A stretch of 14,190 nucleotides of DNA from the IMG/VR virus record IMGVR_UViG_2778261619_000008; one strand, given 5' to 3'. Source of the stretch: a virus (taxonomy: Duplodnaviria > Heunggongvirae > Uroviricota > Caudoviricetes). Position 1 is the first letter of the stretch. Every line of letters starts with the position of its first letter. The notes beneath the pieces were generated by a model. The model was not told the DNA's origin and did no database searches. It saw only the letters and a list, made by a program, of their open reading frames with translations. Positions 5,839 through 11,284 of this stretch are shown one piece after another. A program made the translations under genes and the position numbers.

Positions 5839-6009
5839 TTAAAGTTCATGTGCCATCTGGTCTTTTTCGGCACAAGCTTCACTGCAATATTTTCTCGGTT
5901 CGTCTTTTGATAAAATCCCGTGCATGAAGTGAAGCATTCTTTCAATAGCTTTGCTTTCTTCAACGTCTTTTTTGCAAAGGTGGTAAGCACATTTTATTTT
6001 CTTAGTCAT
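5839..6009 (-). CDS. ydaE: YdaE-like small zinc-binding protein, 56 aa
   Basis: Not in the ORF track (below 60 aa); translated by hand from the minus strand: [56 protein letters not shown]. It has a CxxHxC ... CxxxC arrangement. Its ATG shares one base with the kilR stop codon (TGATG). Confidence 0.75.
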   Translation of the reverse strand: MTKKIKCAYHLCKKDVEESKAIERMLHFMHGILSKDEPRKYCSEACAEKDQMAHEL

Positions 6010-7744: not shown

Positions 7745-8164
7745 TTAAGAGGCTTTTTGTTTTTTCTTTCGTGCTAACTCTTCGTAAATTGCATTGTACT
7801 TCTGTTTTTTCTCCTCAAGAGTTTTTAAAAGTTCATCTGTCTCACTGTCAGGGAGCTCGTCCAGAAGGTCAATGATGATTTTTTGTCTTGGATTTAACTC
7901 CTGATAGAAACGTATCTGTCCACTTTCTTCTGTATCCTCTCCCAAAAGATAGGTTGGTGTTGTTCCAATGAGTGTTGCTAATTCCCTTAATTTCTCTCGG
8001 CGAGGAATTGTTTCACCATTAAACCATTTGCTAACCGCTTTTGGTGTTAATTTCATTCGACGGGCAATTTCTGCCTGCCTTCCATGTTGTTCATAACCAG
8101 CGTTTTCACAGGCTAGCGCAAGCCTACTGGCGAACTCTTTACGCGCTTTATCTTCATGAACCAT
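7745..8164 (-). CDS. racR: RacR prophage repressor (CI-like, XRE-type HTH), 139 aa
   Basis: Track ORF MVHEDKARKEFASRLALACENAGYEQHGRQAEIARRMKLTPKAVSKWFNGETIP... has an N-terminal helix-turn-helix. It is divergent from the Cro-like gene. No Shine-Dalgarno precedes the ATG, and an in-frame stop lies 18 codons upstream, so the start cannot be much further 5'. Confidence 0.78.
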   Translation of the reverse strand: MVHEDKARKEFASRLALACENAGYEQHGRQAEIARRMKLTPKAVSKWFNGETIPRREKLRELATLIGTTPTYLLGEDTEESGQIRFYQELNPRQKIIIDLLDELPDSETDELLKTLEEKKQKYNAIYEELARKKKQKAS

Positions 8165-8243
8165 AAGTTCAATGATATTCGCTCTTGAATGTACTGTCAG
8201 TTCTGTTATAGCATGTACTCAAAGTTCACATTGTGAGGATGAT
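8165..8243. promoter_or_regulatory. Divergent racR / ydaS promoter-operator region (lambda OR analogue)
   Basis: 79-bp gap between divergent repressor and Cro-like genes. Two copies of ATGTACT (8189-8195, 8213-8219). A minus-strand -35 CTGACA (8195-8200), 17-bp spacer and -10 TATCAT (8172-8177) would place the transcription start at about the racR ATG (leaderless, like lambda cI from PRM). A possible plus-strand TTGAAT/TATAGC pair would serve ydaS. Confidence 0.55.
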
Positions 8244-8498
8244 ATGAACCAGAAAACACTTGAAGATGTAATCAAAACTGTTCGCGTTTCTGTTGTGGCC
8301 GACGTTTGTGGTGTCAGCCAAAGAGCAATCTACAAATGGATGGATAACGGAAAATTGCCTCGCACAGAATATACCGGCGAAACAAATTACGCTGAAAAAA
8401 TCGCTCATGCATCAAACGGATTATTTTCTGCCGATGCAATTTTAACTATTGGCAGAAATAAAACTACTACGAAAAAGCTGATGGGAGTTGATTCATGA
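8244..8498 (+). CDS. ydaS: YdaS-like Cro-type HTH regulator, 84 aa
   Basis: Track ORF 8172..8498. I chose the ATG at 8244 (GAGGA Shine-Dalgarno upstream) because the longer form would overlap the racR start. The ...GVSQRAIYKWMDNGKLPR... motif is typical of the YdaS/Cro-like family. Its stop overlaps the ydaT start (ATGA). Confidence 0.7.
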   Translation: MNQKTLEDVIKTVRVSVVADVCGVSQRAIYKWMDNGKLPRTEYTGETNYAEKIAHASNGLFSADAILTIGRNKTTTKKLMGVDS

Positions 8499-8917
8499 AA
8501 ATCAAGCATGAGCACATCGAATCAGTGTTGTTAGCCCTGGCAGCCGAAAAAGGGCAGGCGTGGGTCGCTAACGCAATTACTGAAGAATATCTGCACCAGG
8601 GGGGCGGCGAATTGCCCCTGGTACCAGGCAAGGACTGGAACAATCAGCAGAATATCTATCATCGTTGGTTGAAAGGTGAAACGAATGCGCAAAGGGAAAA
8701 AATTCAGAAACTGATCCCTGCGGTTCTGGCAATTCTTCCTCGCGAGCTGCGTCACCGACTCTGCATCTTCGATACCTTGGAACGCCGTGCATTACTGGCG
8801 GCACAGGATGCACTGAGTACGGCAATTGATGCGCATGATGATGCAGTCCAGGCCGTTTACCGTAAAGCACATTTCAGCGGCGGCGGTTCTCCTAGCGATT
8901 CTGTCGTAGTGCATTGA
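8495..8917 (+). CDS. ydaT: YdaT-like protein (CII-like regulator, reported toxic on overexpression), 140 aa
   Basis: 140-aa track ORF (MKIKHEHIESVLLALAAEKGQAWV...), translationally coupled to ydaS. Length and position match Rac ydaT. Confidence 0.78.
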   Translation: MKIKHEHIESVLLALAAEKGQAWVANAITEEYLHQGGGELPLVPGKDWNNQQNIYHRWLKGETNAQREKIQKLIPAVLAILPRELRHRLCIFDTLERRALLAAQDALSTAIDAHDDAVQAVYRKAHFSGGGSPSDSVVVH

Positions 8918-8962
8918 TTGAAATTAATCGTACCGAACTGTTTTGTTCGGTATCAGTTAAAT

Positions 8963-8981
8963 GTAACGCTGCGAGCGTTAC
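8963..8981. repeat. 19-bp dyad GTAACGCT-N3-AGCGTTAC, copy 1 (just upstream of the ydaU-like start)
   Basis: Perfect 8-bp inverted repeat with a 3-nt spacer, read directly from the sequence. Confidence 0.6.
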
Positions 8982-8994
8982 AAGGTGAAAACAA

Positions 8995-9783
8995 ATGGCT
9001 TCAAACTGGATAAAGCTCGAAGTTATTACGCCGGATAAGCCGGAAATATTCAGGCTTGCTGAGATTCTGAATATTGATCCAGATGCCGCATTAGGGAAAG
9101 TCATTCGCTTCTGGGCATGGGCGGATCAACAAATGATAGACGGTAACGCAGAGTGTAACGCTCGAGGCGTTACAAAAAGTGCAATAGACCGTATCACTTT
9201 TATGGCTGGTTTTGCTGATGCGTTAATTCAGGTTGGATGGCTGGTCGAAAGTGATGGAGTGCTTTCACTACCAAACTTTGAGCGTCATAACGGAAAAAGC
9301 TCGAAAAAACGGGCGGTTACAAACGAGAGAGTTACAAAAATACGCGAACTGAAGCGAAAAGGTAACGCTGCCAGCGTTACACAAACGGATCAAAAAGCGT
9401 TACCAGAGGAAGAGGAAGAGGAAGATATAAATACTGATCTCCCCCTAAATCCCCCTCGGCAAAAACGAGCGTCTAAACAATTCGAGCCGGAGGCCATTGC
9501 TCTGCCCGACTGGTTGCCAGAAACACTCTGGAATGAGTGGGTCCAGTTCAGGCAGGCATTGCGAAAACCGATTCGAACGGAGCAGGGCGCTAACGGGGCG
9601 ATACGGGAACTGGAAAAATTCCGCCAGCAGGGTTTTACCCCTGAGCAGGTGATTCGACACAGCATCGCCAATGAATACCAGGGCTTGTTCGCGCCGAAAA
9701 GTGTTCGGCCTGAGACGTTGCTCCGACAGGTTAACACTGTCTCGTTTCCGGACAGTGCGATCCCGCCAGGCTTCAGGGGGTAA
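8995..9783 (+). CDS. ydaU: Replication initiator, lambda O-like (YdaU-like), 262 aa
   Basis: Track ORF with an AAGGTG Shine-Dalgarno upstream. It sits directly upstream of a DnaC-like gene and contains a 19-bp dyad repeat array in its 5' half, as in lambda O where ori lies inside the gene. The C-terminal region is acidic/Pro-rich. Confidence 0.78.
   Translation: MASNWIKLEVITPDKPEIFRLAEILNIDPDAALGKVIRFWAWADQQMIDGNAECNARGVTKSAIDRITFMAGFADALIQVGWLVESDGVLSLPNFERHNGKSSKKRAVTNERVTKIRELKRKGNAASVTQTDQKALPEEEEEEDINTDLPLNPPRQKRASKQFEPEAIALPDWLPETLWNEWVQFRQALRKPIRTEQGANGAIRELEKFRQQGFTPEQVIRHSIANEYQGLFAPKSVRPETLLRQVNTVSFPDSAIPPGFRG
9155..9173. repeat. 19-bp dyad GTAACGC-N5-GCGTTAC, copy 2 (inside ydaU-like)
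   Basis: Inverted repeat read directly from the sequence. An extra GTAACGC half-site lies at 9143-9149. Confidence 0.6.
9362..9380. repeat. 19-bp dyad GTAACGCT-N3-AGCGTTAC, copy 3 (inside ydaU-like)
   Basis: Perfect 8-bp inverted repeat with a 3-nt spacer. Further half-sites lie at 9313-9320, 9330-9335 and 9397-9403. Confidence 0.6.
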
Positions 9784-9789
9784 CTGACC

Positions 9790-10536
9790 ATGAAAAATAT
9801 TGCGACAGGCGGCGTTCTGGAACGTATCCGCAGACTGGCCCCGCCACATGTAACCGCGCCATTCAGGACGGTGGCGGAGTGGCGCGAGTGGCAACTTGCA
9901 GAAGGCCAGAAACGTTGCGAGGAGATCAATCGCCAGAATCGTCAGTTGCGGGTGGAAAAAATTCTGAATCGCTCCGGCATCCAGCCGTTGCACCGCAAAT
10001 GCTCGTTTTCGAATTACCAGGTGCAGAACGACGGCCAGCGATACGCGTTGAGCCAGGCGAAATCCATCGCCGATGAACTGATGGTCGGGTGTACAAATTT
10101 TGCGTTTAGCGGAAAACCTGGTACCGGAAAAAACCATCTGGCGGCGGCTATCGGGAATCGCCTGCTGAAAAACGGTCAGACAGTGATTGTGGTTACCGTG
10201 GCTGATGTTATGAGTGCTCTACACGCCAGCTATGACGACGGGCAATCAGGCGAAAAATTTTTGCGGGAACTGTGCGAAGTGGATCTGCTGGTTCTTGATG
10301 AAATTGGCATTCAGCGCGAGACAAAAAACGAGCAGGTGGTACTGCACCAGATTGTTGATCGCCGGACAGCGTCGATCCGCAGCGTGGGGATGCTGACAAA
10401 CCTGAACTATGAGGCCATGAAAACATTGCTCGGCGAGAGGATTATGGATCGGATGACCATGAACGGCGGGCGATGGGTGAATTTTAACTGGGAGAGCTGG
10501 CGCCCGAATGTTGGTCAGCCAGGAATTGAGAAGTAA
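9790..10536 (+). CDS. ydaV: DnaC/IstB-like AAA+ helicase loader (YdaV-like), 248 aa
   Basis: Walker A motif FSGKPGTGKNHLAAAIG and Walker B motif DLLVLDEIG in the translation. Length and context match Rac ydaV. Confidence 0.88.
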   Translation: MKNIATGGVLERIRRLAPPHVTAPFRTVAEWREWQLAEGQKRCEEINRQNRQLRVEKILNRSGIQPLHRKCSFSNYQVQNDGQRYALSQAKSIADELMVGCTNFAFSGKPGTGKNHLAAAIGNRLLKNGQTVIVVTVADVMSALHASYDDGQSGEKFLRELCEVDLLVLDEIGIQRETKNEQVVLHQIVDRRTASIRSVGMLTNLNYEAMKTLLGERIMDRMTMNGGRWVNFNWESWRPNVGQPGIEK

Positions 10537-10558
10537 TTTTTACCGGGAGGAAATTTTA

Positions 10559-11284
10559 ATGGAGACCGTTTTTGACGCACTGAAAGCAATGGGAAAAGCC
10601 TCTTCCCAGGAAGTGGCAGCACGTCTGGGAATGACCCGGGATGAGGCGATTAACGAGCTGTGGAAACTGAAGCGTCGTGGGGAAGCTGATAACAAGGGCC
10701 CGATGTGGTGGTTGACTCAAACCGACGAAAACGCATCTGTAGCACAGGCTTCTAAAGTGACAGCGCAAATGCTGATCGAGGCGATTGAACAGCATGGCCC
10801 TAAAGCGGCTGATGAACTTGCACTGATATTCAGAATTACTTCCCGCAGGGTGAACTCATCGCTGGCTATGGCCATCAGCAAAGGTCGTCTGATTCGCGTA
10901 AATCAGAACGGTAAATTTCGTTACTGCCTGCCGGACGGTAATTTACCAGCAGAGCCGAAAGTTGTATCGGTAGTGAAAACACCTGGTAAAGGCTTTCCTC
11001 AGCCAGCCGGTGTTGCGTTACCAGTACAGGAAGCGGCAACACAGGAAGAAATTAAAACAGATACTGTGGGGGACATTGTGCAGTCACTACCATCGTTCAC
11101 TGAAACGCGAGCCAATGACCTGATTATACCATCGCTGCAAATGGCAAACCGCGAACTGCGCCGGGCGAAAAGTTATGTCCAGAAGTGGGAGCGAGTCTGC
11201 GCCGCGCTGCGTGAGCTGAACAAGCACCAGGATATTGTCCGTCAGATTGTCGATTCCTCCAGTCGTATTGTGTCGGAAAAGTGA
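10559..11284 (+). CDS. Uncharacterised prophage protein with N-terminal winged-helix-like region, 241 aa (possibly YdaW/DUF1627-like)
   Basis: Track ORF 10508..11284. The ATG at 10559 has a GGGAGG Shine-Dalgarno 8 nt upstream (METVFDALKAMGKASSQEVAARLGMTRDEAINELWKLKRRGE...). The C-terminus is predicted helical/charged. Family assignment is from memory and unverified. Confidence 0.65.
   Translation: METVFDALKAMGKASSQEVAARLGMTRDEAINELWKLKRRGEADNKGPMWWLTQTDENASVAQASKVTAQMLIEAIEQHGPKAADELALIFRITSRRVNSSLAMAISKGRLIRVNQNGKFRYCLPDGNLPAEPKVVSVVKTPGKGFPQPAGVALPVQEAATQEEIKTDTVGDIVQSLPSFTETRANDLIIPSLQMANRELRRAKSYVQKWERVCAALRELNKHQDIVRQIVDSSSRIVSEK

Follow-up and report, generated by a model that had tools for sequence, protein, structure and literature searches.

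The window analysed here is a 14,190-nucleotide (nt) stretch of DNA from a viral record (Caudoviricetes; IMGVR_UViG_2778261619_000008). It contains a gene for a putative replication initiator and, directly downstream, the ydaV gene for a DnaC/IstB-like helicase loader. Three copies of the dyad GTAACGC-N5-GCGTTAC, which are the subject of this study, are found just upstream of and within the initiator gene. Positions 8100-10600 of the window are 100% identical to the Rac prophage of Escherichia coli AMSCJX02, which is integrated between ttcA and trkG. Among the 5,426 complete E. coli genomes searched, at least 677 contain 80% or more of this segment. L001, a 20.5-kb piece of the AMSCJX02 prophage spanning the segment, contains no dyads besides these three. 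The genes and sequence elements of the locus are listed in Table 1.

Table 1. Genes and sequence elements at the initiator locus, with positions in the window
Feature	Position	Strand	Remarks
Dyad 1, GTAACGC-TGCGA-GCGTTAC	8963-8981		Exact match; non-coding, between ydaT stop (8917) and initiator ATG (8995)
Dyad 2, GTAACGC-TCGAG-GCGTTAC	9155-9173		Exact match; codes C-N-A-R-G-V-T, amino acids 54-60
Dyad 3, GTAACGC-TGCCA-GCGTTAC	9362-9380		Exact match; codes G-N-A-A-S-V-T, amino acids 123-129, disordered linker
Lone half-site GTAACGC	9143-9149	+	Codes G-N-A, amino acids 50-52; start-to-start 12 nt before dyad 2 left arm
Lone half-site GCGTTAC	9397-9403	-	23 nt past dyad 3 right arm; GCG TTA CCA = A135-L136-P137
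Degenerate half-site-like words CGGTTAC and GAGTTAC	9314-9320 and 9329-9335		Within basic-region coding sequence
Candidate unwinding element	9405-9439		21-nt all-purine run AGAGGAAGAGGAAGAGGAAGA (poly-Glu), then TATAAATACTGATC
Hairpin TACCGAAC-TGTTTT-GTTCGGTA	8931-8952	+	Between ydaT and initiator gene
Repressor-like helix-turn-helix gene	7745-8164	-	
Cro-like helix-turn-helix gene	8244-8498	+	
ydaT	8495-8917	+	CII-like
Initiator gene	8995-9783	+	262 amino acids; PHROG 2509 match
ydaV	9790-10536	+	DnaC/IstB-like AAA+ helicase loader (Pfam); directly downstream of initiator gene

The three full dyads described in an earlier note on this DNA were found to be exact at the positions in Table 1, with spacings of 192 bp between dyads 1 and 2 and 207 bp between dyads 2 and 3. 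When up to two mismatches were allowed, 200 dinucleotide-preserving shuffles gave a mean of 0.04 dyad matches, and none of the shuffles contained three. The perfect heptamer occurs 10 times in the window against 1.2 expected, with 8 of the 10 copies within 8963-9403. One-mismatch heptamers are near background outside this cluster, and two more lie inside it, at 9220 and 9329. Dyad 1 ends 13 nt 5' of the initiator ATG and abuts the ribosome-binding site AAGGTG (8983-8988). The earlier note had also listed several half-sites. The perfect lone copies at 9143 and 9397 stood up to scrutiny, whereas the GTTACAAA-type ones are weaker and degenerate (9314-9335), with a codon bias that is only moderate (L108 CTT 0.63, V113 GTT 0.62). 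The recurring Val-Thr imprint on the protein was readily seen in the two peptides encoded by dyads 2 and 3, and the half-site at 9397-9403 lies in a reading frame different from that of the in-gene dyads.

Relatives of the initiator gene were gathered from 27 genome loci, several annotated phage loci and 160 viral-contig loci, and removal of sequences more than 85% identical left a non-redundant set of 59. At least one in-gene N5 dyad was present in 54/59 and two were present in 45/59, compared with 4 dyads in 416,837 positions in the flanks of the same loci. The earlier note had named a lack of DNA-level conservation among homologous genes as a ground for abandoning its proposal, and the repeats turned out to be strongly conserved. 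The dyads keep constant gene offsets, at nt ~149-161 and ~338-413, in relatives down to ~45% amino-acid identity, and the median distance between them is 209 bp (184-264). The spacing of about 200 bp instead of a tight tandem arrangement, on which the note had remarked, is therefore a trait of the family and not an oddity of one copy. The 44.8 kb of E. coli phage TL-2011b contain just two dyads, both in the initiator gene and 209 bp apart. Helical phasing of the distance between dyads 2 and 3 gave a Rayleigh statistic that was broad over 9-12 bp periods and disappeared (R = 0.21) once only unique distances were used.

Dyads at the same offsets were found in hosts or phages as different as Enterobacterales, Xanthomonas phage CP2, Ralstonia phage YL1 and an isolate of Novipirellula rosea. 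They were also present in contigs of metagenome-assembled genomes (MAGs) binned to Pirellulaceae, Saccharibacteria and Ignavibacteria, MAG taxonomic assignment being uncertain. The isolate genome of N. rosea (Planctomycetota) carries the initiator family and the DNA word on a 669-kb contig, and both occur, far outside Proteobacteria, in Planctomycetota, Saccharibacteria, Ignavibacteria and Gallionella contigs (L020-L028). A search of a plasmid collection yielded only 2 matches to the initiator N-domain. About 12 Enterobacterales loci have an upstream dyad 12-25 nt before the ATG, although the rest of their upstream sequence is unrelated. Where the initiator gene overlaps the preceding gene this dyad is missing, and most relatives do not have it. 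The direct half-site at gene nt 149 is present in most Enterobacterales relatives, and the half-site 3' of dyad 3 is kept at a distance of 11-23 nt in distant relatives. Phage CP2 (L280) has perfect dyads outside the initiator gene, at 5976-5994 and 34142-34172, one at the end of the spanin gene and one within open reading frame ORF30 together with an extra half-site. These outside dyads might serve as additional origins, as remote partner sites or as targets of regulation.

Variants from Klebsiella, Enterobacter, Pantoea and Erwinia (L018, L019, P0089, P0100 and P0109) have an 11-residue insertion in the loop at amino acids 50-60, which adds an N-A-x-S-V-T unit, and in other relatives dyad 3 is preceded by 2-3 additional N-A units. 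Within the coding sequence the arrays thus gain and lose sites, and the insertions are what would be expected of expanding arrays. A Citrobacter freundii locus (L037, 1501-3314) encodes an 81% identical initiator with all dyads, followed by TrmB-like helix-turn-helix genes and no DnaC-like loader. Because the initiator and its dyads occur there without the loader, a DnaC-like loader is not an obligatory partner.

The earlier note had also suggested weighing repeat conservation against synonymous-site variation, and this comparison gave a clear result. We considered the conserved amino-acid columns of the codon alignment and separated those whose synonymous site lies in a dyad or half-site arm. 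Pairwise codon identity had a median of 1.0 in the eight arm columns and 0.45 in the 60 other conserved columns (Mann-Whitney p = 5e-6). Synonymous sites are thus essentially randomised outside the arms and nearly fixed inside them. In dyad 2, N55 is AAC in 24/24 and V59 is GTT in 22/24, while G50 in the adjoining half-site is GGT in 21/24; in dyad 3, N124 is AAC in 21/22 and V128 is GTT in 20/21. L136, in the half-site past dyad 3, is TTA in 20/21, compared with TTA in 2-8 of ~24 in other conserved Leu columns. The same preference was found when all copies of the peptide motifs were pooled. Asn of N-A motifs is AAC in 69/80 (157/308 elsewhere), Val of V-T motifs is GTT in 62/70 (103/332), Gly preceding N-A is GGT in 36/37 (103/446), and Ser preceding V-T is AGC in 30/32 (81/408). 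Before N-A the residue may be G, S, C or R, but its codon is always xGT, which keeps the word intact. Conservation of the word extends to a second frame, where it reads A-L-P, and to non-coding DNA upstream of the gene in unrelated contexts. The frame also changes from one relative to another, as some dyad-dyad distances cannot be divided by three. The dyads are almost certainly cis elements under selection at the DNA level. The protein seems to tolerate the words where its predicted structure allows, in a low-confidence loop at dyad 2 and in a disordered linker at dyad 3.

In family members without GTAACGC, another palindrome occupies the two gene positions of the dyads. Two Planctomycetota contigs have CTAACG(G/C)-N5-GCGTTAG, a Vibrio phage and a Paraglaciecola MAG have TGTCACA-N7-TGTGACA, and three viral contigs have GTCACGC-N5-GCGTGAC or GTCACAT-N5-GTGTGAC. 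A GTGACGC palindrome is present in two viral contigs, and GTCCGC-N7-GCGGAC in Salmonella phage epsilon15. The word thus changes with the protein lineage and stays constant within each lineage. Two words are found in elements of a single host genus (epsilon15 and the Rac-like elements in Salmonella), and one word is shared across phyla, which makes a host factor unlikely as the reader and points to a reader encoded by the element itself. The initiator gene is the only constant neighbour of the sites. The upstream neighbours vary among ydaT, cytosine methylases and hypothetical genes, and the downstream ones among DnaC-like, RuvC-like, TrmB-like and hypothetical genes. The sites are therefore probably read by the encoded initiator. 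Amino acids 106-113 read R-A-x-D-A-[ED]-R-[KQ] in proteins with GTCAC or GTCCGC words and R-A-[LV]-T-x-x-R-V in the GTAAC class, a difference that is suggestive of a specificity switch.

The RefSeq product name of the initiator gene is hypothetical, and its 262-residue product matches no Pfam family at E <= 0.01, including DUF1376 and the lambda O family. It matches PHROG 2509, 'replication initiation protein', over residues 1-262 on profile positions 1-277 of 277 (E = 3e-89), a name that is an annotation and not a tested function. The protein is laid out as a putative winged-helix-like N-domain (residues ~16-91), a basic region (95-121), a disordered acidic linker (120-160), and a C-domain with a tail (170-262). 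In the AlphaFold model, the N-terminal part consists of helices 16-25, 29-48, 61-68 and 73-80 and a beta hairpin at 84-91, which would make it a winged-helix-like DNA-binding domain. It is followed by a disordered stretch (99-160) with a basic helix in it, and by three C-domain helices (176-188, 196-211 and 216-225). Dyad 2 encodes the low-confidence loop between two N-domain helices (AlphaFold confidence pLDDT <50, residues 54-57).

The gene had been called ydaU-like, which holds for its C-terminal half and fails for its N-terminal half. A BLASTP comparison with K-12 YdaU aligned only the C-terminal 124 residues, at 78% identity, and the DUF1376 N-domain of K-12 YdaU (PF07120, E = 2.7e-26) has no counterpart in the window protein. 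The two proteins also fall into different PHROGs (2509/9474 for the window initiator and 6451/3992 for K-12 YdaU), and the only O-like match of the window initiator is to PHROG 678, over residues 85-237, a profile that K-12 YdaU matches as well. Judged by sequence comparison, the initiator gene is a mosaic of an N-half unrelated to K-12 YdaU and a YdaU-related C-half.

The C-terminal 93 residues align with residues 92-179 of E. coli DnaT, including the tail ...VNTVSxPDSxIPPGFRG, and a phmmer search against the PDB retrieved 2ru8_A (E = 5.2e-5) and 9zbt_D residues 92-179 (E = 2.1e-4). By these matches the C-domain (residues 170-262, window positions 9502-9783) is a homologue of the DnaT C-terminal domain, which assembles into filaments on single-stranded DNA where the helicase is loaded (PMC13377028). 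The ydaV product gave Pfam matches to IstB_IS21 (E = 1.4e-19) and Bac_DnaA (E = 1.7e-8), and a near-identical phage record labels the equivalent stretch as a misc_feature similar to DnaC-like protein. In the host, dnaT and then dnaC form one operon (PMC13377028), an arrangement that the initiator-ydaV pair mirrors. Phage relatives carry 'primosomal protein I' labels, and one record cites an HHpred match to DnaT; the DnaT-like C-domain probably accounts for these labels. Together with the DnaC-like neighbour, it hints at a phage origin for dnaT.

Next to the half-site past dyad 3 lies the candidate unwinding element. In a stability scan of 40-mers at 20-nt steps over 8800-9900, the 40-mer from 9400 had the lowest stability sampled (dG -46.9 compared with a mean of -53.3, standard deviation 4.2), and positions 9400-9439 are 62% A+T and 72% purine. 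A common variant of the initiator with 376-378 amino acids (P0026, P0047 and P0064, from E. coli and Salmonella) has a ~114-residue linker insertion shortly past the poly-Glu run, thus just downstream of this element.

Taken together, the dyads and half-sites, with the purine-rich candidate unwinding element past dyad 3, would form the replication origin of the Rac-type prophage, embedded in its initiator gene, a reading to which we give a probability of roughly 0.7; it would make this origin a variant of Rac oriJ paired with an initiator N-domain different from that of K-12. The proposal of the earlier note, an origin or initiator-binding array within the initiator gene, thus gains support from the dyad conservation, the fixed synonymous sites and the lineage-specific palindromes. 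The binding and the identity of the binder, the looping, the melting site and the firing of the origin are inferred. In the mechanism that we propose, dimers of the N-terminal part (winged-helix core and basic region) would bind each GTAACGC-N5-GCGTTAC, and the extra half-sites, in a 12-bp register, would extend the complexes at dyads 2 and 3. The in-gene clusters about 200 bp apart, with dyad 1 in Enterobacterales, would join into one nucleoprotein complex, and the adjacent 9405-9439 stretch would open. The DnaT-like C-domain could then coat the single strand and mark the helicase-loading site, to which the DnaC-like YdaV would bring host DnaB. Through dyad 1, beside the ribosome-binding site, the protein may in addition restrain its own production.

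Several observations weigh against this reading. The candidate unwinding element is modest, at ~1.5 standard deviations below the window mean stability, and no DnaA-box or IHF patterns were found within 8800-9900. The ~200-bp site spacing is unlike that of textbook tandem iterons, and the CP2 dyads outside the gene may mean that the protein also binds elsewhere or that the phage has further origins. Residues 109 and 113 correlate with the third base of the half-site, but this is confounded, since half-site-like DNA (GTTACA twice) codes for that very stretch, and the variant-word class may be a single clade. We therefore downgraded residues 109 and 113 as recognition residues, as their correlation may be a DNA imprint. 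Our literature search, whose coverage was incomplete, turned up neither binding nor origin-mapping experiments on proteins with this N-domain, and no description of the dyads or of the two-cluster architecture. Rac has been reported to carry an active origin, oriJ (PMC3945230), while some authors call K-12 Rac replication-defective (PMC11014345).

The earlier note had likened the array to that of lambda. The lambda origin has ~19-bp initiator sites with internal dyad symmetry inside gene O, at the linker between the DNA-binding N-domain and the helicase-recruiting C-domain. They are four tandem iterons ~24 bp apart, next to a purine-rich, less stable stretch and then the gene for the helicase-loader partner, P. 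Among lambdoid phages, the N-domain and its sites swap together between relatives. The window resembles lambda in that repeated candidate initiator sites (dyads 2 and 3 and two half-sites) lie within the initiator's own coding sequence, and in that dyad 3 lies in the part coding for the linker, with a purine-rich stretch of modestly lower stability next to it and a loader gene downstream. However, the window initiator has no Pfam match to O (Phage_rep_O), its C-domain is DnaT-like, and its partner is DnaC-like and not P-like. The sites also form two in-gene clusters ~200 bp apart plus an upstream site, only the half-sites being close (12 or 23 nt), and one of the clusters lies within the region coding for the N-domain. 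The likeness to lambda is thus right about the logic, sites within the initiator gene, and does not extend to anatomy or homology; the locus is lambda-like in logic and not a lambdoid O/ori member.

A second comparison is with oriJ and YdaU-YdaV of K-12 Rac, which share with the window the prophage, the integration site between ttcA and trkG, the order ydaT-initiator-ydaV and the C-domain. The difference lies in the N-domain, which in the window is unrelated to the DUF1376 domain of K-12 YdaU, and in the repeats, which are GTAACGC dyads in place of the TGTTCAAACA-type repeats of K-12. In the K-12/DH1 Rac prophage (L002, 3583-3910), TGTTCAAACA and its variants occur in direct and inverted orientation at nt ~146, ~231 and 353-469 of ydaU. 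The TGTTCAAACA cluster at 3794-3910 of L002 is at the equivalent linker position and is followed by an A/T-rich stretch that contains GATC. On the basis of sequence, these repeats and the A/T-rich stretch are likely the core of oriJ. K-12 ydaU thus differs from the window gene both in its N-domain and in the repeats at the equivalent position, and the two have been swapped as one unit, as in lambdoid O/ori. A viral-contig scan with the K-12 YdaU N-domain returned 80 loci that were all at least 99% identical, and so was uninformative on conservation of the K-12 repeats.

DnaT and DnaC of the E. coli replication-restart primosome offer a third comparison. DnaT, which PriA/PriB recruit to forks, lacks a sequence-specific DNA-binding domain. 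The window initiator resembles it in its C-terminal 93 residues and in the DnaC-like gene that comes next, and differs from it in that a candidate sequence-specific N-domain replaces the DnaT N-domain. Initiator sites in separated clusters are also found in P4 (ori and crr) and SPP1 (oriL and oriR), where the clusters are kilobases apart. The split clusters of the window recall these systems, although they are ~200 bp apart and not kilobases and the proteins are unrelated, so that P4 and SPP1 serve as a lead only.

The main alternative is that the dyads are only autoregulatory operators, at which the initiator or another phage regulator blocks transcription through the initiator gene, and that the origin lies elsewhere. 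Dyad 1 is directly against the ribosome-binding site, the CP2 dyads outside the gene resemble the regulon of a transcription factor, and 7-N5-7 palindromes are typical of repressor operators. However, most relatives lack the upstream site and have an initiator gene that overlaps the preceding one, which leaves no promoter to control, and a promoter scan found no sigma-70-like promoter on the + strand near 8900-9000. Two sites deep in the coding sequence, ~200 bp apart and conserved across phyla, are also difficult to reconcile with a pure operator role. A site-specific N-part joined to a DnaT-like helicase-recruitment domain, with a DnaC-like gene adjacent, is the make-up of an initiator, which argues for an origin over operators alone. 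We therefore regard operators alone as unlikely, and note that autoregulation at dyad 1 could coexist with origin function.

Each dyad could also act in the mRNA, as a hairpin with a 7-bp stem and a 5-nt loop that affects translation, stability or processing. The dyads fold at -10.7 to -13.4 kcal/mol, and the variant classes change both arms together, which would fit compensatory changes. However, the z-scores are modest (-2.3 to -3.3), and no Rfam match was found at E <= 1 on 8700-9900. All sites of one genome share one arm sequence, a constraint that hairpins would not require; conserved lone half-sites keep a 12-nt register, and the arms are always the same distance apart from centre to centre. 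In imperfect copies, the mismatches are mostly of non-wobble types (C.A, C.C, G.G and A.G) at inner positions. These features favour a protein dimer on duplex DNA, and a role as RNA hairpins is very improbable.

A neighbouring regulator (the YdaT/CII-like, Cro-like or repressor protein) or a host protein might bind the dyads in place of the initiator. The ydaT gene is directly upstream, and the YdaT tetramer can hold two sites (PMC11879457). The YdaT box, however, has a different sequence, TTGATT-N6-AATCAA (PMC9986795, PMC11879457), with its perfect copy instead at 8488-8505, and YdaT was rejected as the binder on these grounds. The dyads are also conserved in phages that lack ydaT and have unrelated neighbours, and a heptamer scan found no GTAACGC in the immunity region of the window. 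Since the word varies within one host genus and is shared across phyla, a host factor fits poorly as well, and we consider a binder other than the initiator hardly probable. That the repeats are a by-product of a required peptide motif (GNAxSVT), or of chance, is extremely unlikely. In the protein alignment N-A and V-T hardly vary, but their synonymous positions are fixed, the flanking residues vary only among those that keep the DNA word, conservation of the word extends to another frame and to non-coding DNA, the motifs are located in a low-confidence loop and a disordered linker, and chance would give the 0.04 matches stated above.

The hairpin that the earlier note had placed between ydaT and the initiator gene does exist and folds as RNA at -13.9 kcal/mol (z = -4.6 relative to shuffles). 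In 93% identical Shigella/E. coli loci (L003) it has three left-arm substitutions, all of which give G.U pairs on the + strand RNA and would be C.A mismatches on the other strand. It is missing from 79-88% identical relatives that retain dyad 1, and we therefore rejected it as part of the origin. It was also rejected as an intrinsic terminator, because the stem on the + strand is followed by UCAGUUAAAU, without a U-run. In a lenient terminator scan only the - strand passed, with the tail CGATTAATTT, and the regional number of matches equalled the shuffle expectation. The hairpin is best seen as a lineage-specific mRNA hairpin. The perfect YdaT box at 8488-8505 covers the ydaT start codon, in agreement with the footprint in K-12 Rac, and a YdaT-box-like copy with two mismatches at 8914-8931 overlaps the ydaT stop codon and adjoins the hairpin. 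With up to two mismatches, the window has 5 such boxes compared with 1.5 expected, which is not significant alone.

The locus is most likely a known kind of design, an origin within the initiator gene, that varies in its sites and architecture, and not a new kind of system. More tentatively, it may belong to a widespread family of initiators, from Enterobacterales to Planctomycetota, in which a sequence-specific domain is joined to a DnaT-like domain that coats single strands. The origin in such a family would consist of two palindromic clusters ~200 bp apart in the initiator's own gene, in more than one frame; protein and word would switch together (T..RV with GTAAC, D..RK with GTCAC), and the host dnaT-dnaC might be a domesticated, origin-less descendant.

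If the origin reading is correct, it would provide a nucleotide-level origin for a Rac-type replication module with a full-length match in no fewer than 677 of the E. coli genomes searched, and for a family of phage initiators mostly annotated as 'hypothetical' or 'primosomal protein I'. The region from 8.9 to 10.6 kb is a candidate compact replicon. The dyads are a clean natural case of a DNA-binding word overprinted on coding sequence, in two frames, and the specificity classes are ready-made swaps for studying how initiators recognise their origins. The joining of a site-specific to a DnaT-like domain, beside a DnaC-like gene, suggests a phage shortcut of the host restart pathway to load DnaB, and it could bear on where dnaT-dnaC came from.

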